A stretch of DNA of 32,000 bases, taken from Desulfobulbus propionicus DSM 2032. Its GTDB lineage: Bacteria; Desulfobacterota; Desulfobulbia; Desulfobulbales; Desulfobulbaceae. The stretch covers positions 1,650,001 to 1,682,000 of the forward strand of contig NC_014972.1 in assembly GCF_000186885.1 (NCBI RefSeq). The letters run 5' to 3'. Below are positions 11,430 through 32,000 of the stretch, one piece after another. The number at the start of each line of letters is the position of its first letter. Position 1 is the stretch's first letter. The notes beneath the pieces were generated by a model, which made no database searches, was not told the DNA's origin, and saw nothing but the letters and a program-made list of their open reading frames with translations. The position numbers were made by a program, and so were the translations under genes.

Positions 11430-12449
11430 TCATGGTGTGCCGGCGGCAAGACCAACCGGCCAGACGGCAAAGGTCTTGCCGGGTTTGTAACCAACCCCGC
11501 AGGCTCCCTTGCCGAGATACAGCACCCAGGCCCAGTCGGTTTCAAAAAAGCTGGTGGTGGAGGACCAATAACCATCCTCCAGTCCGGTGAAGGGATGGTC
11601 GGCGGGCAGGGCAGGGGAACAGGCAGCGCAGTCCACCAGGGAAGCCAGTTCGTTGATGGTCGGCAACCGCCATTGCCGTCCGTCGCCGGCACGCTCCCGC
11701 TTCCAGGCGGCAACCGACTCAAGGGCCTGTTGCCAGGCAATCGGCTCTCCCCGCAGATCGGCATGTTTCGCCCACCACAGGTTGGTCAGGTGATCGTGCA
11801 CCACCTCCCCGGCAACACTAAATCGGGGAATGGGCCAGGGGGCTCCGAGGCGCAAGGCACCGTCCTGGCCGCTGCCGCTCCCGTTCATTTCCCGGCCCTG
11901 GACATCAAAACAGCGCCGCTGCCCGGTTTGGGGAAGCAGCCCGTTGCCTGTTCCACGCACCGGCCAGAACAAAGAGGCTTGGTCCTTGCGACTGTAAAAC
12001 ATCCGCGCCCCTTCGAGATGCACGGCCCAGGCATAGGCCGGATTGATGGCGGCGGTGGTCGATGACCAGTACCAGCCGAGAAAAGGGTGAACAAAGGGGT
12101 GGTCCTCGGGCAGGGCCGGCTTTTTCGCCTGATAGCTCATCAGGCTGCGCAACTCGTTGCGGTTGGGCAGGCGCCAGTCCCCATGCCCGCCATACTGTTG
12201 CCGATTCAACTCGTCGATCTGTTCAAAGGCCTCCAGCCAGGTGCAGGGAAAACCGCCGATAGTGGCATCGAGCGTCCAGGTCAGGCCGGTCAGTTGATCG
12301 ACCGCCACATCGCCCCGCACGGTGAAGCGGGGTGACGGCCACGGCGCGCCCCGGAGAAATTCGCCGTCCTGGCCGCTGCCGGAACAGTCGATCTCCTGAC
12401 CGCTTGCGTTGTAACAACGGGTCTGGCCGGTGTGCAGCACATGCAGCAT
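11430..12449 (-). CDS. Tandem DUF1566 (Lcl C-terminal domain-like) protein, no signal peptide
   Basis: Two paralogous modules, each starting TGQ(T/R)RC(Y/F)..G.E...SGSGQDG...GAPWP.PRF and ending WRLP..NEL.SL......PALP.DHPF......YWSSTT...AW. Start taken at MLHVLHTGQTRCY (12449), because the longer track ORF would overlap the hemerythrin gene. Confidence 0.8.
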   Translation of the reverse strand: MLHVLHTGQTRCYNASGQEIDCSGSGQDGEFLRGAPWPSPRFTVRGDVAVDQLTGLTWTLDATIGGFPCTWLEAFEQIDELNRQQYGGHGDWRLPNRNELRSLMSYQAKKPALPEDHPFVHPFLGWYWSSTTAAINPAYAWAVHLEGARMFYSRKDQASLFWPVRGTGNGLLPQTGQRRCFDVQGREMNGSGSGQDGALRLGAPWPIPRFSVAGEVVHDHLTNLWWAKHADLRGEPIAWQQALESVAAWKRERAGDGRQWRLPTINELASLVDCAACSPALPADHPFTGLEDGYWSSTTSFFETDWAWVLYLGKGACGVGYKPGKTFAVWPVGLAAGTP

Positions 12450-24527: not shown

Positions 24528-24624
24528 TATTGCCGACTGCGGCGCGATCCTTGTCCGGATGCGCCGCCACGGCCCCGACGTACCGTACCCGCCATTTTTT
24601 TGTCAATATCAACCAAGGAACCGA

Positions 24625-25860
24625 ATGCAATTTGAACAACTGGCTCTGCCAGAACCCCTCGGCAAGGGTATTGCCGAAGCAGGATTCACCGAATGTACGC
24701 CCATCCAGGAACTGACCCTTCCCCTCACCCTCGGCGGCAAGGACGTGGCCGGCCGCGGCCAGACCGGCACCGGCAAGACCGCCGCCTTTCTCATCACCCT
24801 GTTTGACCGGCTGCTGAAAAACAATCCGCCCGCAAGCCCGAATCCTCGCGCCCTGATCCTGGCCCCGACCCGCGAGCTGGTGGTGCAGATCCATCAGGAT
24901 GCGCTGCTATTGGGCAAGCACTGCGGCTTTTCCATCCAGGCGGCGTACGGCGGGGTGGACTACAACAAACAGCGCGAGGCCCTGCGCACCGGGGTCGATG
25001 TCCTGATCGGCACCCCCGGTCGGTTGATCGATTTTCTCAAACAGAAGATCTACACCCTTGCTGATATCGAGATGCTGGTCATCGACGAGGCCGATCGCAT
25101 GTTCGACCTGGGGTTCATCGGCGACCTGCGCTTTCTCCTCCGCCGGCTGCCGGCCTTTGACAAGCGCCAAAATCTGATGTTCTCCGCCACCCTCAACCAT
25201 CGGGTGATGGAACTGGCCTACGAGTTCATGAACATGCCCGAGAAGGTCAGTGTCAGCGGCGACAGCATGACCGCAGACAAGATCGAGGAGATTCTCTTCC
25301 ACGTTTCCAGCAAGGAGAAGTTTCCTCTCCTGCTCGGCTTGCTGCGTCGCGAGGGCATGGAACGGACCATGATTTTCGTCAACACCAAGCGCGAGGGCGA
25401 GCGGCTGCAGGCCCGGTTGATGGCCAACGACCACCCCTGCCGCCTGATCTCCGGCGATGTGGCCCAGGAAAAACGTTTGCGGATCATGCGCGATTTCAAG
25501 GCGGGCAAGCTGCCGATGCTGATCGCCACCGACGTGGCCTCGCGCGGGCTGCACATCGAGGGGGTGTCGCATGTGATCAACTACGATTTGCCCGAGGACT
25601 GCGAGGACTACGTGCACCGCATCGGCCGCACGGCCCGGGCCGGAGCCGAAGGCAAGGCCATCTCCCTGGCCGACGAGACCGGGGTGCTTTCCCTGGAAGC
25701 CATCGAGGAATACATCGGCCACCCGATCCCCACCGAGTGGGCCGAGGACGAACTGTTTGTCATCGACTACAAGCATCCACCGAGAACGGCTCGCAGAAAC
25801 ACGAAACCCGTGAACACGACGCCCAGGGGAGGGAAGGCCCGCTCGGGCAGGCGGCGTTGA
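24625..25860 (+). CDS. DEAD-box ATP-dependent RNA helicase (RhlB-like) with basic C-terminal tail
   Basis: Q-motif GFTECTPIQ, motif I GQTGTGKTAAF, PTRELV, motif II VIDEADRM, SAT, ...MIFVNTK..., HRIGRTARAG, and tail RRNTKPVNTTPRGGKARSGRRR. ATG 24625 with AAGGAA upstream; the track start at 24559 is unsupported. Confidence 0.95.
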   Translation: MQFEQLALPEPLGKGIAEAGFTECTPIQELTLPLTLGGKDVAGRGQTGTGKTAAFLITLFDRLLKNNPPASPNPRALILAPTRELVVQIHQDALLLGKHCGFSIQAAYGGVDYNKQREALRTGVDVLIGTPGRLIDFLKQKIYTLADIEMLVIDEADRMFDLGFIGDLRFLLRRLPAFDKRQNLMFSATLNHRVMELAYEFMNMPEKVSVSGDSMTADKIEEILFHVSSKEKFPLLLGLLRREGMERTMIFVNTKREGERLQARLMANDHPCRLISGDVAQEKRLRIMRDFKAGKLPMLIATDVASRGLHIEGVSHVINYDLPEDCEDYVHRIGRTARAGAEGKAISLADETGVLSLEAIEEYIGHPIPTEWAEDELFVIDYKHPPRTARRNTKPVNTTPRGGKARSGRRR

Positions 25861-25991: not shown

Positions 25992-26366
25992 ATGTCCGTT
26001 TTGAAAGATCCCAGAGTGTTTTTTGCAGCGGAGCGGACGTTGCTGGCCTGGACCCGCACCTCGCTCACCCTGATGGCCTTTGGTTTCGTGGTGGAACGGT
26101 TCGGACTCTTCCTCACCACGATCCTGCCCCGGTCCGAGGAAACGTTTCAGCGCGACCTCTCGTTTTGGATCGGCCTTTCGTTCATCCTCCTCGGCTCGTT
26201 GACCTCTGCCATGGCGGTCTGGCAGTACAGGAAAATCCTGCGGACGCTCAATCCCGAAGAAATTCCGACCGGCTATCTGACCAGTCTGGGCGCCTGGGCC
26301 AACCAGATCGTGGCCGTCCTCGGTCTGGCCCTGACCGTGTATCTCTTCCGGGGTTCAATGGTATGA
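25992..26366 (+). CDS. DUF202 (YidH-family) inner-membrane protein
   Basis: FFAAERTLLAWTRTSLTLMAFGFVVERF is the DUF202 signature (ERT.LAW.RT), followed by two further TM helices. GGAGG RBS. Confidence 0.85.
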   Translation: MSVLKDPRVFFAAERTLLAWTRTSLTLMAFGFVVERFGLFLTTILPRSEETFQRDLSFWIGLSFILLGSLTSAMAVWQYRKILRTLNPEEIPTGYLTSLGAWANQIVAVLGLALTVYLFRGSMV

Positions 26367-27347: not shown

Positions 27348-28232
27348 TTATAGAGGATCGCGTACCCCGTTTTTCCCTAATCGTTTCACCACTAAAGTCG
27401 GCAAGGGCGAAATGGCGGCCACCCGTTCCACCACGCTGCCCATGAGCAGGGTCCCCAAAGCCGTTCGACCGTAGGTGCCCAGAACAATCAGATCGATGTG
27501 ATGCTTCTCGCCGTATTTGACGATTTTATCGTACGGCGCACCATGGACGATTTCGGTGGTCACCTTCACGCCCAGGCGTTCGCCCTGGCCGGCAAGGGTT
27601 TGAAGAGGCGGAAAACTCCGTCTTCGCGCCTCTTCCAGAACGCCGTAGAGAAAGCTTCGCTCCAGGGGGATGTCCAGCACGGTCAGGGCATGGACCTCGC
27701 CGCCAAAGGCCAGGGCCAATTCCAGGGCCCGTTGTCCGGCTTCCATGCTGTAGCGGGAACCGTCGATTCCGACCAGGATCCGGGAGAAGTTGATCGCCGA
27801 ATGTTCCGGAATCATCAGGACATCGCAGGGGCTGCATCCAATCACCTTGGCGGTGGTTCTTCCCAGGAAGACCCGTTCCAGCGTTGATCGTTTGGGGTAG
27901 CCCATCAGCACCAGCCCCGCGTTTTCCTGCTCCGCCGCATGCACGATCTCCTCGGTCGGATCGCCGATGGCGTGCAGGGTGCGCAACGGCTGTCCGGCGG
28001 TCAACGCCTCCTGCCTGGCGTCTTCCAGGCACTGGATGAACGGCTGGCTGAGCTGCTGGTCGGCGTTGGCGATTTTCCACCGATGCATGTTGCCCTCGTA
28101 TCGGGGCGTCACCGAGATGGCGATCAGTTGTGCTTTGAGAAAAAGGGCCAGGCGCAGCGCCTGCTGAAATACCGCCTGGCTTGATTTGCCCGGGTCCAGG
28201 GCGACAAGGATGGTGCTGATGCCTTCGGTCAT
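27348..28232 (-). CDS. Tandem universal stress protein (two UspA domains)
   Basis: Start MTEGISTILVALDPGKSS (GGGAGGAAA RBS). Each half has the Usp pattern (ILVA.D.s..s..a...A..la......l..l.V ... DLIV(L/M)G..gR..l....lGS....V......PvL(V/M)(V/I)). The first half ends ...GLVLMGYPKRSTLERVFLGRTTAKVIGCSPCDVLMIP and the second ...DLIVLGTYGRTALGTLLMGSVVERVAAISPLPTLVVK. Confidence 0.85.
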   Translation of the reverse strand: MTEGISTILVALDPGKSSQAVFQQALRLALFLKAQLIAISVTPRYEGNMHRWKIANADQQLSQPFIQCLEDARQEALTAGQPLRTLHAIGDPTEEIVHAAEQENAGLVLMGYPKRSTLERVFLGRTTAKVIGCSPCDVLMIPEHSAINFSRILVGIDGSRYSMEAGQRALELALAFGGEVHALTVLDIPLERSFLYGVLEEARRRSFPPLQTLAGQGERLGVKVTTEIVHGAPYDKIVKYGEKHHIDLIVLGTYGRTALGTLLMGSVVERVAAISPLPTLVVKRLGKNGVRDPL

Positions 28233-28257
28233 GGCGGTTTCCTCCCGGAGCTGATGA

Positions 28258-29313
28258 TTACCCGTTGGCGGCGATCCTTTCCAATCGCCTTGCCTTGAAC
28301 AGGCTGGACAGGATGATCGACGCCCCCACCAGCAAGGCAAAACACATGATGGCAAAACTGAGTTGGGTCATCAGCTTGACCGCGCCATCGCTCAACAGGA
28401 CCAGATGCAGTTCGTTGAGATACTTGGGGATGGCGAAAAACCGGCTGACCGCGACGATGAGCATGATCGTGGCCATCACGTATTTGATCATGTATTCCTT
28501 GACATAGGTGGTACCGATCGCACCCAGCTGGACGCCAAACAGCGAGCCGGCAAGGATGATCATCACTAGGCGGATGTCGACCATGCCGTAATAGGCCCAA
28601 ATCAGGGTGCCGCCCAATCCCATGACAAAGGCGATGACCAGCTCGGTGGCCGAGGCGACGATACTGGTGGCGCCGATGATGTACATCAACCCCGGCACGC
28701 CGATGAAGCCGCCGACGGCGATGGTGGCCGCCAACATGCCGGTGGCCACGGCGACCGGCACCAGGAACCAGAGACTGATGCGCAGATTGGCGGTCTTGAG
28801 GGTGAGCATCGGCCACAGTTCGATCCGCTGCAGACGCTTGGCCAGGGAGGGGACGCTTTCGCTTGTTCCGCCAGCGCGCTTCATCGTGATGGCGTCGCGC
28901 ATGACAAAGGAACCGACCGTCACCAGCACCAGCACAAAGATGAAGCTGACATACAGGTTGGAACCTGCCTGCCCCCATCTGTCGAGAATGTATTTTTGCA
29001 CCATGATGCCCGCCTGGACACCGATTTCCGCGAAAACGCCCATGATGAGTCCGAGCTTGATATCCACCTGGCCGTATTTGTAGCGCTTGATGGCGCCGAC
29101 CAGGGCCTTGGGGAATTTGTGGCACATGTTGCTGGCCACGGCCACGGTTCCGGGAACTCCGAGGCTCATCATGCCGGGAGTCAGCACAAAGGCCCCGCCG
29201 GAGCCGATGAACCCGCTGACCAGGCCGCCGATGAACCCGACCAGGAAAAGAAAGGTGATCGTGTAGACGTTGAGATCGATGAACTGTATGACTTCACTGA
29301 CTGGGCCGTGCAT
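28258..29313 (-). CDS. TauE/SafE (DUF81) family anion-exporter-like membrane protein
   Basis: FLFLVGFIGGLVSGFIGSGGAFVLTPGMMSLGVP... and a second half ...GMLAATIAVGGFIGVPGLMYIIG... show the duplicated 4-TM TauE/SafE pattern with G-rich motifs. AGGAGG RBS. Confidence 0.85.
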   Translation of the reverse strand: MHGPVSEVIQFIDLNVYTITFLFLVGFIGGLVSGFIGSGGAFVLTPGMMSLGVPGTVAVASNMCHKFPKALVGAIKRYKYGQVDIKLGLIMGVFAEIGVQAGIMVQKYILDRWGQAGSNLYVSFIFVLVLVTVGSFVMRDAITMKRAGGTSESVPSLAKRLQRIELWPMLTLKTANLRISLWFLVPVAVATGMLAATIAVGGFIGVPGLMYIIGATSIVASATELVIAFVMGLGGTLIWAYYGMVDIRLVMIILAGSLFGVQLGAIGTTYVKEYMIKYVMATIMLIVAVSRFFAIPKYLNELHLVLLSDGAVKLMTQLSFAIMCFALLVGASIILSSLFKARRLERIAANG

Positions 29314-29381: not shown

Positions 29382-30224
29382 TCAGGCATTCAGCTGCAGC
29401 CGAGGCCGGGTATCCGGACGAGGGGCAACGACCGGCTCCGTGAGCGGACGGTCCTGCTCCACCCGCGGCGCGGCGGTTTTCCTGGAGGCTTCGATCCCGA
29501 GTGCCGACCAGAAGGCGCTGGTGAAGTTGCCGTGGAAAAAGGACACCGCAAAGACCGTTGCCACCGGCAGCACCGCGAACAAACCACCCTTGGCGAAATA
29601 GGTCATTACAACATCCTGGTTGGCAAACACAGCCGCGTACAATCCCGTTGTCAGGGTGCCAAAAAGGAAACAATTCTTCACGTGCCGTTTTCTGCTGGTG
29701 GTGGACATAGCTGTTACTCCTTTGTTGTTGGGGGGATGAATAAGGGTCCTCTTGCGCTGACCTTGGTTGGTTGTGATGACGGGAAAAACAGGAACCGGAG
29801 AATGTTTGGCGACCTCGCCCAGGCGGATGCCCTTGTCGATGATGACGAATTCGATCCGTTTCTTGGCGTGGCAGAGCCGGCTGACGACGACGCCCACCTT
29901 GCCCTCCTCGCGGAGATGCTCGATGGCCACTTTCTTGGTCTTTGCCTTGCCGCGAAACAGAGCCGTGCTCTCTTCCATGGCCGCAGCGAACAGCCGACAG
30001 CGTCTACCGCTGTCCTTGTAAAAGGGAAGGGTGTCGACATGGACCGTGACAATGCCGTAGCCCAGCCGATGGGCCACATTGAGGGCATAGTCCATGACAT
30101 GCTCGGACAGGTGTCCGTTGCGCGTCACCACGAGAATGTAAGGACGATCCTGATGGTGCTCGACCCGGTGGTCGAGGAGGGGCGGGGAGGAGGCTGACGG
30201 ATCACGCCTCTCTATGGCAACCAT
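29382..30224 (-). CDS. Usp-like (adenine-nucleotide alpha-hydrolase fold, tentative) domain fused in frame to a 2-TM C-terminal module; possibly two overlapping translation products
   Basis: ATG 30224 follows GGGAGG. The N-terminal ~165 aa (RPYILVVTRNGHLSEHVMDYALNVAHRLGYGIVTVHV...KRIEFVIIDKGIRLGEVAKHSPVPVFPV) are loosely Usp-like. The internal ATG 29708 (MSTTSRKRHVKNCFLFGTLTTGLYAAVFA...GGLFAVLPVATVFAVSFFHG) is preceded by AAAGGAG at 8-nt spacing, with no intervening stop. Confidence 0.6.
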   Translation of the reverse strand: MVAIERRDPSASSPPLLDHRVEHHQDRPYILVVTRNGHLSEHVMDYALNVAHRLGYGIVTVHVDTLPFYKDSGRRCRLFAAAMEESTALFRGKAKTKKVAIEHLREEGKVGVVVSRLCHAKKRIEFVIIDKGIRLGEVAKHSPVPVFPVITTNQGQRKRTLIHPPNNKGVTAMSTTSRKRHVKNCFLFGTLTTGLYAAVFANQDVVMTYFAKGGLFAVLPVATVFAVSFFHGNFTSAFWSALGIEASRKTAAPRVEQDRPLTEPVVAPRPDTRPRLQLNA

Positions 30225-30279: not shown

Positions 30280-30296
30280 ACCAAGAACCGTGCCAT
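30280..30296 (-). promoter_or_regulatory. Candidate sigma-54 (-24/-12) promoter for the Usp-like/TauE/Usp operon
   Basis: Minus strand reads aaTGGCACGgttcTTGGta. The -24 element is perfect (TGGCACG) and the spacing is correct. The -12 element is TTGG instead of TTGC. It lies about 55 nt upstream of ATG 30224. Confidence 0.3.
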
Positions 30297-30575
30297 TGGG
30301 GGTTTTTTGCATATCATCCTGATGTGACAATATTTTTTTCTTGTTGTCGATCGGGCGGCCAGGACGACGATTGTTGCAAAAAGAAACACTGGTCCGACAA
30401 TAGACTATTGAGGCCCTCTGGAGTGTTGCATTGTGCAACTTTTGCTTTGCTGGGCTGCAACAGGGGCGGGTGCAAGGACGTCCTTGGCAGGGGGTGTCAA
30501 GGGCGGTGGAAGCGGCAGGAATCGTTGTTTTGCTCCCTGATCAGGGGGAAGCCCGGTCGATGCCAGACTTCGATA

Positions 30576-30591
30576 AGGCATTAGTCTTGCA
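30576..30591 (+). promoter_or_regulatory. Candidate sigma-54 (-24/-12) promoter for the REC-Lon gene
   Basis: aGGCATtagtcTTGCAa has GG-N10-GC spacing and a perfect -12 TTGCA. It matches 9 of 12 specified consensus positions (TGGCACG-N4-TTGCA). It lies about 125 nt upstream of ATG 30715. Confidence 0.3.
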
Positions 30592-30714: not shown

Positions 30715-32000
30715 ATGTTTTTTAAAAAACGGATTGAACCTGCCGAAGAGACCTCTCGGCATCAGACAGCCCCTTCCTCTCCTTCGCCGCTGGATCTGCT
30801 GCGCGGCAGGATCAGGGAGGCGCACCTCCCCCATCTGGTCATGGAAGCGGTGACCGGCGAGTTGGAAAAGCTGGAAAAGACGGAACCGGCGGTGGCGGAA
30901 TATTCGGTGGGGTTCAACTACATCGAACTGGTGCTCAGTCTGCCGTGGAATGTCTCGTCACAGTGCACCTTCGATCTGGAGCGGGCGCAGCGTGTTCTCG
31001 ATACCCGCCATTACGGCCTGGCCCAGGTCAAACAACGCATTCTCGAGTTCTTGGCGGCCAAAACCCTGTGCAGCAAGGCACGGCAGTCCATCTTGATTGT
31101 CGATGACGAGGAAATCGCCCGCGCCAACATGGAGCATGTGCTCAAGAAGGAAGGCTATGCGTGCCATTGCGCCAGCCACGGTGCCGAGGCCCTGGAGATC
31201 ATGGCGCGCGAGGATATCGACTTGATCATCACCGATCTGAAGATGGAGCGGATGGATGGCATCGAGCTGCTGCAGCATGTCAACCGGACCTCGCCCGAGA
31301 TCCCGGTGATCATGGTCACTGGGTTCGCCACGGTCAGTTCGGCGGTGGACGCCCTGAAAAAGGGCGCGGCCCACTATCTGGGCAAGCCGGTCAACCTTGA
31401 TGAGTTGCGCAAGACGGTCAAGGAGGTGCTGGAGAAGAAATTGTTCGTGCAGATGGGCAAGGGACCGATCCTCTGCTTCACCGGCCCTCCGGGCACAGGC
31501 AAGACCTCGGTGGGCAAGGCGATCGCCGAGGCGTTGCAGCGCCAGTTCATCCGCATTTCCCTAGCCGGCCTGCGCGACGAGGCGGAACTGCGCGGCCACC
31601 GGCGGACCTATGTCGGCGCCCTGCCCGGACGGGTGATCACCGAGCTGAAGCGGGCCGGGGTCAACAATCCGGTGCTGATGCTCGATGAAATCGACAAAAT
31701 CGGCCAGGATTTCCGTGGCGATCCCGCCTCGGTCCTCCTTGAGGTGCTCGATCCGGAACAGAACACCCATTTCACCGACCATTATCTCGAACTGCCCTTT
31801 GATTTGTCGCGGGTCATGTTCATCGCCACGGCCAACGATGTGTCCACTCTGCCCCGGCCGCTGCTCGATCGCATGGAGTGCATCGAATTCTCGGGCTACA
31901 CGGAAAAGGAAAAACTGCATATCGCGCAACAGTTCATCCTCCCCCGTCAACTCAAGCTCGCCGGGCTGTCCAAATTCTCTGTCGCTTTCACGTCCGAGGC
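30715..32000 (+). CDS. Atypical Lon-type AAA+ protease (3' end beyond window): no LON N-terminal domain, and a receiver (REC) domain inserted immediately upstream of Walker A
   Basis: My own translation of frame 1; the ORF is not in the supplied track because no stop occurs before the window end. It reads MFFKKRIEP...EYSVGFNYIELVLSLPWNVSSQCTFDLERAQRVLDTRHYGLAQVKQRILEFLAAK. REC: SILIVDDEE...DLIITDLKMERMDG...VIMVTGF...HYLGKPV. Then GPILCFTGPPGTGKTS, HRRTYVGALPGRVI, VLMLDEIDKIG, VMFIATAN and LLDRMECIEFSGYTEKEK. Confidence 0.9.
   Translation, partial: MFFKKRIEPAEETSRHQTAPSSPSPLDLLRGRIREAHLPHLVMEAVTGELEKLEKTEPAVAEYSVGFNYIELVLSLPWNVSSQCTFDLERAQRVLDTRHYGLAQVKQRILEFLAAKTLCSKARQSILIVDDEEIARANMEHVLKKEGYACHCASHGAEALEIMAREDIDLIITDLKMERMDGIELLQHVNRTSPEIPVIMVTGFATVSSAVDALKKGAAHYLGKPVNLDELRKTVKEVLEKKLFVQMGKGPILCFTGPPGTGKTSVGKAIAEALQRQFIRISLAGLRDEAELRGHRRTYVGALPGRVITELKRAGVNNPVLMLDEIDKIGQDFRGDPASVLLEVLDPEQNTHFTDHYLELPFDLSRVMFIATANDVSTLPRPLLDRMECIEFSGYTEKEKLHIAQQFILPRQLKLAGLSKFSVAFTSE

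Follow-up and report, generated by a model that had tools for sequence, protein, structure and literature searches.

We analysed a window of 32,000 nucleotides from the genome of Desulfobulbus propionicus DSM 2032, at the end of which lies the 5' part of a gene for a Lon protease with a receiver domain (REC) inserted ahead of Walker A, here referred to as REC-Lon. A divergent operon lies upstream on the opposite strand, and the intergenic region carries candidate promoter and activator-binding elements. The features of the locus, with coordinates in the window, are the following:

27471..28355, minus strand: tandem universal stress protein (Usp) gene (domain match, E 1e-51; 294 aa in L001)
28258..29313, minus strand: TauE/SafE-family anion exporter (domain match, TauE E 2e-34), counterpart of DVU3299, a 'putative anion transporter' (PMC10102598)
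29382..30224, minus strand: conserved 280-aa protein with a weak Usp-like N-terminus and one TM-like segment, first gene of the divergent operon
30280..30295, minus strand: sigma54-type -24/-12 element TGGCACGGTTCTTGGT, 55 nt 5' of the divergent 280-aa gene (consensus match)
30373..30387, no strand: second palindrome copy GTTGCAAAAAGAAAC, with one mismatch, 52 bp from the first
30425..30439, no strand: perfect palindrome GTTGCATTGTGCAAC, predicted UAS of the partner sigma54 activator (matches DVU3305 sites)
30576..30591, plus strand: sigma54-type -24/-12 element AGGCATTAGTCTTGCA, 123 nt 5' of the REC-Lon ATG (consensus match)
30715..32000, plus strand: REC-Lon gene, 5' 1286 nt (428 of 715 codons), running past the window edge
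30793..31071, plus strand: LonA N-terminal three-helix bundle and AAA+ helix alpha0, residues 27-119 (LonA alignment, AF2 helices)
31072..31455, plus strand: CheY-like REC insert with short linkers, residues 120-247 (Pfam, LonA alignment, conservation, AF2 model)
31456..32000, plus strand: Lon AAA+ large subdomain, residues 248-428 (Pfam, alignment, structure)

A Lon protease gene with an inserted receiver

Translation of the window gave a frame 1 without stop codons from the ATG at 30715 to 32000 (428 codons), exactly as described in the original prediction, and a homologue search retrieved the full-length protein (P0001, 715 aa), which was 100% identical to the window ORF across 428 aa. The ORF contains the motifs IVDDEE, LIITD, MVTG, LGKP, GPPGTGKTS, HRRTYVGALPGRVI, VLMLDEIDK, FIATAN and LLDRMECIEFSGYT, and the positions originally given for them were correct, with D174 encoded at nt 31234-31236 and the Walker A residues 257-265 at nt 31483-31509. 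The N-terminus 'MFF[KR]K' is kept across about 45 relatives, and because of this conservation we regard ATG 30715 as the true start and the loss of the N domain as real. A Lon N domain hidden upstream in another frame was ruled out, since the 490 bp preceding the conserved start codon are intergenic, contain promoter and UAS elements, and are bordered on their far side by a gene on the opposite strand. An assembly or annotation artefact, by which REC and Lon would in fact be separate genes, was likewise dismissed as next to impossible. Nothing was found in its favour; the unbroken frame is identical in a complete genome, in a MAG and in several assemblies from metagenomes and read archives, the collinear REC-Lon layout is common to >240 protein clusters (90% identity), and no indels occurred at either REC junction among 39 REC-Lon sequences.

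The complete receiver that had been placed ahead of Walker A, at about 31087-31440, was borne out by domain search and alignment. Pfam Response_reg (PF00072) matched residues 126-235 with an E-value of 2.5e-31 and 108.6 bits (cutoff 30.2), a match that spans all but the last of the 111 profile positions (1-110), and alignments with structurally solved LonA proteins were split exactly at this segment. Query residues 26-119 aligned with residues 251-344 of T. thermophilus Lon and residues 248-419 with 351-522; segments 11-103 and 105-281 of a B. subtilis Lon construct aligned with query residues 27-119 and 247-423, respectively. Where LonA has about 6 residues in the alpha0-beta1 loop, this protein has about 128, a net insert of about 122 aa, and REC is thereby inserted about 10 residues ahead of Walker A, between AAA+ helix alpha0 and strand beta1. 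The AF2 structure, a monomer model with a pLDDT of 83.5 overall and of 77-91 at the REC junctions, placed alpha0 at residues 103-121, REC beta1 at 125-129, REC alpha5 at 228-248 and AAA+ beta1 at 252-256, with alpha5 modelled as one continuous helix that stops 3 residues short of AAA+ beta1. Key residues of the receiver are the acidic pair D130/D131, the phospho-acceptor D174, T202, Y221 and K224, and judging by these the domain looks catalytically competent. The best matches of this receiver were to AtoC, NtrC, NtrC1 and GlrR, and the RssB and CpdR models also scored.

From the LonA N region only residues 27-119 remain, with helices at residues 25-36, 40-55, 61-75, 88-98 and 103-121 in the AF2 model, and the first residues of REC-Lon correspond to residue 251 of T. 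thermophilus Lon. The absence of the substrate-binding N domain of about 200 aa, also part of the original prediction, was upheld: in addition to the conserved start, LON_substr_bdg (PF02190) had no match in a Pfam scan of the window ORF and of the 715-aa protein, and an N-terminal Lon domain was not found anywhere in the REC-Lon family. The AAA+ landmarks comprise Walker A (residues 257-265), pore-loop Tyr299, Walker B (324-328), sensor-1 N374 and the Arg finger R386, and Pfam AAA (PF00004) matched residues 253-392 (E 8.6e-26 in the window ORF, and about 1e-25 in the scans of the ORF and of the full-length protein). Beyond the window, the extended protein has Lon_lid (residues 416-465) and the Lon_C protease domain whose presence the original prediction had made decisive (PF05362, residues 474-674, E 1.9e-72), with the Ser-Lys dyad formed by S583 and K626, and it carries at the C-terminus a non-conserved tail of 40 extra aa. 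The score for the TIGR00763 'lon' equivalog was 705.8 bits (curated cutoff 608.05), with a listed match that spans model positions 331-795 only. The AF2 model possesses the NTD3H-AAA+-protease fold of LonA and matched solved LonA structures with target-normalised TM-scores of 0.92 (3m6a, rmsd 2.9 A), 0.90-0.92 (6v11) and 0.88 (6u5z). By its domain content, the protein is LonA-derived, yet not a canonical LonA.

Conservation, gene neighbourhood and the DVU3303 system

Conservation was assessed in an alignment of 39 REC-Lon sequences with 52-82% identity and in a wider set of 68 sequences with identities down to 51%. Residues D130, D131, D174, T202 and K224, Walker A and B, Y299, N374, R386, S583 and K626 were invariant in both sets (39/39 and 68/68), GPPGTGKTS and DEIDK were unchanged in 39/39 sequences, and conservation of Y221 was at least 90% in the wider set. 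The REC-Lon design is real and conserved in sulfate-reducing Thermodesulfobacteriota; members of the family have also been recorded in Thermodesulfovibrio, Thioalkalivibrio and Dechloromonas (Rajeev et al. 2011, PMC3333781). Long multi-stretch matches from a representative search were rejected as alternative REC-Lon architectures, being tandem-AAA+ Lon proteins without REC, and an apparent Lon-HK fusion at L046 was discarded as an alternative-frame ORF artefact in a high-GC MAG.

A neighbouring histidine kinase (HK), for which the original prediction had suggested a survey, was found in D. propionicus, and, among loci whose flanks were long enough, nearly all have an HK together with a sigma54 activator (EBP) next to REC-Lon, in three gene orders. 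Based on domain scans, the partner kinase is a membrane HK (2 TM, HAMP-HisKA-HATPase) and the partner activator an NtrC-type sigma54 EBP (REC-AAA+-HTH). The HK-EBP pair of D. propionicus is convergent to the Lon gene, overlapping its 3' end by 87 nt, and the Lon gene is monocistronic. The divergent 280-aa and TauE genes are likewise conserved at REC-Lon loci, and no HK, EBP, 280-aa or TauE neighbours occurred at the 31 canonical-Lon loci compared. The REC-Lon family is linked with a response to stress and oxyanions (chlorate, TauE exporter). The receivers of Lon and of the partner EBP align gaplessly across 119 aa, with 40% identity and 71% similarity overall and with 60% identity in alpha1 vs 43% in the remaining domain, and their likeness hints at one common kinase. 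A test of co-evolution between both receivers, in which cognate and shuffled pairs from 24 non-redundant loci were compared over all columns, over alpha1, and over alpha1 plus beta5-alpha5, yielded no significant result (p = 0.14-0.36), with little power owing to the nearly invariant alpha1.

Both intergenic sigma54 elements deviate from the consensus at 1-2 positions, and matches as close as these were not enriched across the whole window (17 found vs 20 expected); the two sites carry weight because of their position and conservation only. Position and orientation of the AGGCATTAGTCTTGCA-type element are kept in Desulfobulbaceae relatives. The palindrome at 30425-30439 is the only perfect GTTGC-N5-GCAAC match in the 32-kb window, and it agrees with the EMSA-validated DVU3305 sites GTTGCGATATGCAAC and GCTGCATAATGCAAC, the former of which is bound by DVU3305 upstream of DVU3303 in D. 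vulgaris (published sites). Paired palindromes 53 bp apart are also present at L012 and L033, and in 1.41 Mb of searched sequence 32/33 palindrome matches were located within 700 nt upstream of REC-Lon genes, vs 1.3 expected.

The original prediction named no characterised Lon with a receiver at this position, and the novelty was overstated. A REC-bearing, N-truncated Lon, DVU3303 of D. vulgaris, was described in 2011 along with the same regulation hypothesis and a three-component proposal (Rajeev et al. 2011, PMC3333781); the DVU3303-DVU3305 system is also covered by Kazakov et al. 2015 (PMC4641369); and a genetic link followed in 2023 with cofitness >0.9 for the three genes encoding DVU3303, the kinase and the sigma54 activator (Trotter et al. 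2023, PMC10102598). Database entries with this architecture are labelled 'response regulator receiver modulated ATP dependent protease'. For REC-Lon or DVU3303, the searchable literature yielded genomics and genetics papers only, and no biochemical or structural study was found. Judged by architecture, gene content and activator site, the D. propionicus locus is probably the orthologous system to DVU3303-3305. In each, an N-truncated Lon with a receiver is encoded beside the genes of an HK and a sigma54 activator, a divergent target operon includes membrane, Usp and anion-transporter genes, and a GTTGC-N5-GCAAC activator site is present in the intergenic region; the likeness to DVU3303 was drawn from its published architecture and locus, and the nearest named relatives were Nitratidesulfovibrio proteins. 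The latter (P0322, P0332 and P0335, each a singleton cluster) are 61-63% identical to the Desulfovibrio-type member and share its Pfam architecture. The gene orders differ, with Lon>HK>EBP forming one operon in D. vulgaris, whereas in D. propionicus Lon stands alone and HK-EBP is convergent. DVU3303 heads the DVU3303-3305 operon, so that the cofitness in D. vulgaris could partly reflect transposon polarity, and D. propionicus, where the Lon-REC gene is monocistronic, offers the cleaner genetic system for that reason. What is new here relative to the published record is where exactly the receiver is inserted, that its junctions are invariant, that regulon and cis-elements are conserved, and a proposed feed-forward wiring.

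Proposed phospho-control and alternative readings

The best explanation overall, in which we place somewhat better than even confidence, is that the protein is a DVU3303-family, LonA-derived protease that provides a conserved 'three-component' module (HK, sigma54 activator and REC-Lon) with its second response regulator, in a phospho-controlled feed-forward loop. The neighbouring kinase would phosphorylate both receivers, that of the EBP and that of Lon. The phosphorylated activator would bind the GTTGC-N5-GCAAC palindromes between the divergent genes (binding known from EMSA in D. vulgaris, the site here recognised by its sequence) and would fire the sigma54 promoters of the REC-Lon gene and of the 280aa-TauE-Usp operon. 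Phospho-D174 would flip the T202/Y221 switch on the alpha4-beta5-alpha5 face of the Lon receiver and, because alpha5 is continuous and ends 3 residues before AAA+ beta1 and the P-loop, ATPase activity or the competence of the hexamer would be altered and proteolysis switched on. One signal would both make the protease and activate it, which amounts to a coherent feed-forward loop. That phosphorylation gates the protease is a plausible proposal, in keeping with a kinase partner that is conserved. More tentatively, and with something under an even chance, this may be the first ATP-dependent protease to be switched directly by two-component phosphorylation, in which phospho-D174 would license ATPase activity or hexamer closure via alpha5, sigma54-dependent expression of the protease would be driven by the same kinase, and the receiver would replace the N domain as the control of substrate entry.

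Another possible explanation, which we consider rather unlikely, is that the receiver replaces the N domain in a different sense, as a phosphorylation-dependent substrate-docking module that feeds a partner to the pore and so exerts feedback control; the partner could be the EBP receiver, captured via alpha4-beta5-alpha5, or the kinase DHp. It would account for a family that lacks the substrate-recognition N domain throughout, and it is in line with the close paralogy of the Lon and EBP receivers (40% identical, gapless) and with the consistent presence of EBP and kinase genes beside REC-Lon; phosphorylated OmpR/NtrC-type receivers commonly dimerise through the same face. However, destruction of the active EBP predicts opposite phenotypes of Lon and EBP mutants, and the cofitness of >0.9 in D. 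vulgaris speaks against this, unless polarity masks the difference. The presence of two receivers with one kinase, and the high similarity of their alpha1, the usual kinase-specificity helix, would also suit a receiver that serves as a phosphate sink or competitor and tunes the output of the sigma54 activator, with the protease acting constitutively on unfolded proteins. Branched two-component pathways with such sinks exist, e.g. those with multiple CheY proteins. Such a role would not need a rigid insertion into AAA+ with invariant linker lengths, nor a REC conserved about as well as the ATPase (mean identity 72.5% vs 77.8% in 39 sequences), and the direct alpha5-to-beta1 connection in the model argues for allosteric coupling instead; we regard a sink as improbable.

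A further reading, to which we attach very little credence, is that of a pseudo-receiver which works without phosphorylation and does no more than stabilise the hexamer, filling in for the missing N domain. LonA without its N-terminal part often assembles or degrades proteins poorly, and a domain that compensates for this can be imagined. However, the five phospho-site residues and the Thr/Tyr switch, which pseudo-receivers typically lose, are invariant or nearly so across 39-68 sequences, and a kinase is consistently encoded nearby.

Comparison with known systems

REC-Lon shares the three-helix bundle, AAA+ module, lid and Ser-Lys protease with canonical LonA (MEROPS S16; E. coli, B. subtilis, M. 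taiwanensis, Y. pestis and human LONP1), with 50-55% identity over the AAA+-protease part. It differs from these enzymes by the lack of the N-terminal substrate-binding lobe of about 225 residues and of the long helix, and by the REC in the alpha0-beta1 loop. LonB and LonC, which also miss the LonA N domain, demonstrate that insertions in the ATPase module are tolerated; the insert is a transmembrane segment in LonB and a helical hairpin in LonC, in both cases located after Walker A and non-signalling. The insert of REC-Lon, in contrast, precedes Walker A, no TM segment was seen in its AF2 model, and the best sequence and structure matches were all to LonA.

The best mechanistic analogy is with the NtrC-family activators (NtrC1, DctD and NtrC), whose AAA+ module is directly preceded by a receiver of the same subfamily and in which phosphorylation of the receiver controls assembly of the AAA+ ring. 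Their output is sigma54 remodelling and their REC is N-terminal, joined via a coiled-coil linker, whereas REC-Lon is a protease with the REC inside AAA+, after alpha0, and with a linker of 3 residues. If phospho-switched, REC-Lon would represent a compact natural case in which proteolysis is gated by a signal, one that could serve as a design template in synthetic biology. RssB and CpdR are receiver-domain adaptors that tie two-component phosphorylation to ClpXP proteolysis and, to our knowledge, all well-studied links of this kind act in trans via such adaptors. Unlike these separate proteins acting on ClpXP, the receiver of REC-Lon is covalently placed within the protease's own ATPase, and would, if the proposed control is true, put an AAA+ machine under a direct phospho-switch that acts in cis.

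Architecture of the receiver-carrying Lon

The REC-Lon gene (30715-32000, plus strand, running past the window edge) encodes a LonA-type protease into which a receiver (REC) is inserted. Translation of frame 1 gave 428 codons with no stop and all of the motifs quoted in the original prediction, whose positions for D174 of LIITD (nt 31234-31236) and for Walker A (GPPGTGKTS, residues 257-265, nt 31483-31509) were both correct. The predicted receiver was recovered by Pfam as a match to the whole Response_reg profile (residues 126-235, 108.6 bits, E 2.5e-31), with AAA at residues 253-392 of the window-encoded part. Among NCBIfam models, the TIGR00763 'lon' equivalog matches in two stretches, and NtrC/AtoC-type receivers match the middle part. 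Structural relatives were sought by phmmer against all PDB chains, among which no solved chain spans both the Lon and the REC parts. The alignment with T. thermophilus Lon is split (query 26-119 to 251-344 and query 248-419 to 351-522), as is that with B. subtilis Lon (construct residues 11-103 and 105-281); therefore, approx. 128 residues stand in for about six loop residues, at a site approx. 10 residues ahead of the Walker A glycine.

The window fragment is 100% identical to P0001, a protein of 715 aa from Desulfobulbus propionicus DSM 2032 named 'response regulator receiver protein' (NCBI) and 'endopeptidase La' (UniRef). Extended beyond the window, as the original prediction had proposed, the frame carries Lon_lid (416-465) and Lon_C (474-674, E 1.9e-72), and P0001 scores above the curated TIGR00763 cutoff (705.8 vs 608 bits). 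The Lon substrate-binding N domain (PF02190), already thought to be missing, had no match in full P0001. Since the 490 bp 5' of the ATG are intergenic, with the next gene on the opposite strand, and the N-terminus MFF[KR]K is kept across relatives, both the start codon and the lack of this domain are genuine. P0001 also has a C-terminal tail of approx. 40 aa (residues 676-715; 12062-12148 of the D. propionicus locus L001, just past the 3' edge of the window), modelled with pLDDT < 50 and absent in relatives, which end at approx. 675-685 aa; at its 3' end, the gene extends 87 nt into that of the convergent sigma54 activator, an overlap suggestive of the loss of an ancestral stop codon in D. propionicus.

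In an AlphaFold2 model built on a 68-sequence alignment (mean pLDDT 83.5, pTM 0.73), helices 25-98 form a bundle and helix 103-121 is the AAA+ alpha0. REC beta1 (125-129) begins three residues past alpha0, and REC alpha5 is a single continuous helix (228-248) ending three residues ahead of AAA+ beta1 (252-256), which runs into the P-loop. Superposition of the modelled Lon part on N-truncated LonA structures (3m6a, TM 0.92, rmsd 2.9 A; 6v11, TM 0.90-0.92; 6u5z, TM 0.88) points to a Lon scaffold left intact by the insertion.

Conserved kinase and activator partners, activator site and sigma54-like promoters

In D. propionicus, the two convergent genes after REC-Lon encode an NtrC-type sigma54 activator (EBP) and a histidine kinase (HK). 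On the divergent side upstream are genes for a 280-aa protein, an exporter of the TauE/SafE type and a tandem Usp protein.

Features around the REC-Lon gene (window coordinates, except for L001)
29382-30224, minus strand: 280-aa protein (31-75% identity), neighbour of TauE at nearly all REC-Lon loci
30280-30295, minus strand: sigma54-type -24/-12 element TGGCACGGTTCTTGGT, 55 nt ahead of the 280-aa gene
30373-30387: one-mismatch palindrome copy, 52 bp from the perfect palindrome
30425-30439: perfect palindrome GTTGCATTGTGCAAC, between the two sigma54-type elements
30576-30591, plus strand: sigma54-type -24/-12 element AGGCATTAGTCTTGCA, 123 nt ahead of the Lon ATG
L001, convergent to REC-Lon: NtrC-type activator with REC, Sigma54_activat (GAFTGA) and HTH_8
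L001, convergent to REC-Lon: histidine kinase with two TM segments, HAMP, HisKA and HATPase_c

Searches of 84 fetched loci with these neighbour proteins (tblastn) placed the EBP and HK with REC-Lon in nearly every locus having enough flank. The pair is convergent to REC-Lon in Desulfobulbales, follows it on one strand (Lon>HK>EBP) in Desulfovibrio and Desulfomicrobium types, and, in two Syntrophobacteraceae, is upstream. A divergent orientation relative to REC-Lon is nearly always seen for the 280-aa and TauE genes. None of the EBP, HK, 280-aa and TauE neighbours was found at 31 canonical-Lon loci. No Pfam family reaches threshold for the 280-aa protein, which shows only a weak resemblance to Usp at its N-terminus (E 0.056) and a single TM-like stretch (209-233).

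Other genes lie nearby. An ABC-2 type transporter (one ATPase and two permease genes; L001 14927-18968, minus strand, downstream of the window) is directly upstream of HK-EBP on the same strand and may be co-transcribed with it in D. propionicus. Approx. 9 kb past REC-Lon (L001 21005-22148), a gene for a WYL-domain regulator and the beginning of one for Cas3 (HD-helicase) indicate a type I CRISPR-Cas locus close by. Upstream of the Usp/TauE operon, a DEAD-box helicase (24559-25860, plus strand) and a DUF202 membrane protein (25992-26366, plus strand) have no evident tie to the Lon system.

The two sigma54-type matches in the intergenic region face one flanking gene each. Across the window, matches as good as these are not enriched, but both keep the same place and direction in Desulfobulbaceae. 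Of 33 copies of the palindrome core TTGCA-N3-TGCAA in the fetched loci (1.41 Mb in all), 32 lie no more than 700 nt upstream of REC-Lon genes, where approx. 1.3 would be expected by chance. In several genomes, palindromes are paired 52-53 bp apart, or five helical turns (30373-30387/30425-30439 in the window, 9630/9683 in L012 and 9643/9696 in L033), a spacing that fits cooperative binding of EBP oligomers on one DNA face.

Proposed phospho-control and rival readings

The original prediction was right in the architecture; the phospho-control that it read from it is plausible, and unproven. The HK would phosphorylate both receivers, that of Lon and that of the activator, which align without gaps at 40% identity and 71% similarity. 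The receiver alpha1 helix is the usual determinant of kinase specificity, and it is 60% identical between the two paralogues vs 43% elsewhere; a test of cognate vs non-cognate receivers, which had little power, was not significant (p = 0.14-0.36). By analogy with NtrC1/DctD-type activators, the effect of phosphorylated D174 might be relayed by T202/Y221 and helix alpha5 either to AAA+ beta1 and the P-loop or to the assembly of the ring. The same activator would also serve the sigma54-like promoter in front of the gene, so that REC-Lon would be both made and activated in a coherent feed-forward loop. Candidate substrates are the 280-aa Usp-like membrane protein (also a possible protease partner), TauE, the activator and the kinase.

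That the fusion is an artefact is very unlikely: at least 240 clusters at 90% identity in a 5.8-billion-protein collection have the same Pfam content and approx. 665-685 aa, from Desulfobulbaceae, Desulfocapsaceae, Syntrophobacterales, Desulfomonile, Desulfovibrionales (including Nitratidesulfovibrio), Thermodesulfomicrobium and one Acidobacteriota MAG. In a library of 1.84 billion representatives clustered at 50% identity, only one full-length representative (P0121) and two fragments follow the query collinearly through REC. The remaining top matches are canonical Lons, each matched as two stretches, or Lons with tandem AAA+ modules, so that the family is compact in sequence. The junctions are rigid and of fixed length, with no indels at either one among 39 full-length members from GTDB genomes (52-82% identity to the query). 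As a separate observation, P0122-P0129, P0131-P0135, P0138 and P0141 are long Lon-family proteins (889-1379 aa); eight of the P0122-P0129 subset scanned with Pfam mostly have two to three successive Lon-type AAA+ and Lon_lid modules, then a single Lon_C, with no REC in any of the eight. These could be real tandem-ring Lons or assembly or gene-calling artefacts.

A pseudo-receiver is a further reading, and has to be set against the residues that are invariant in the 39 members, both in REC (D130, D131, D174, T202, K224) and in Lon (Walker A/B, pore-loop Y299, sensor-1 N374, Arg finger R386, S583, K626). The same residues hold in the 68-sequence alignment, where the aromatic switch Y221 is at least 90% conserved, and REC is conserved about equally with the ATPase (mean identity 72.5% vs 77.8%); this is the pattern of a receiver and a protease that are both functional. 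The receiver might instead serve as a phosphate sink, or as a substrate dock or feedback degrader.

Relation to the DVU3303-3305 system

The novelty suggested in the original prediction held only in part: the same architecture and hypothesis have been in print since 2011, so that neither is original to the present analysis, and database names exist, one source naming P0274 'response regulator receiver modulated ATP dependent protease'. In Desulfovibrio vulgaris, the REC-Lon DVU3303 is entered as 'ATP-dependent protease La, truncation' in the supplementary tables of Rajeev et al. (PMC3333781), who found that its partner activator DVU3305 controls its own operon and the upstream DVU3302-3298 (membrane, hypothetical and UspA-type); the DVU3305 regulon was also listed by Kazakov et al. 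2015 (PMC4641369). Among the three genes DVU3303-DVU3305, pairwise cofitness exceeds 0.9 (Trotter et al. 2023, PMC10102598), a value that could, we infer, be inflated by transposon polarity because DVU3303 is first in the operon. These genes are detrimental in chlorate, a condition that requires DVU3299, which is a target and a putative anion transporter (PMC10102598). Literature searches turned up no study of a REC-Lon by biochemical or structural means. If demonstrated, an AAA+ protease with a phospho-switch acting in cis would be a first, and the present analysis renders the idea directly testable. Upstream of DVU3303, DVU3305 binds at GTTGCGATATGCAAC and GCTGCATAATGCAAC, with an EMSA shift abolished by mutation (PMC3333781). 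The window palindrome is the same as in these published sites, and with the other published features it identifies the window locus as the D. propionicus version of the D. vulgaris DVU3303-3305 system.
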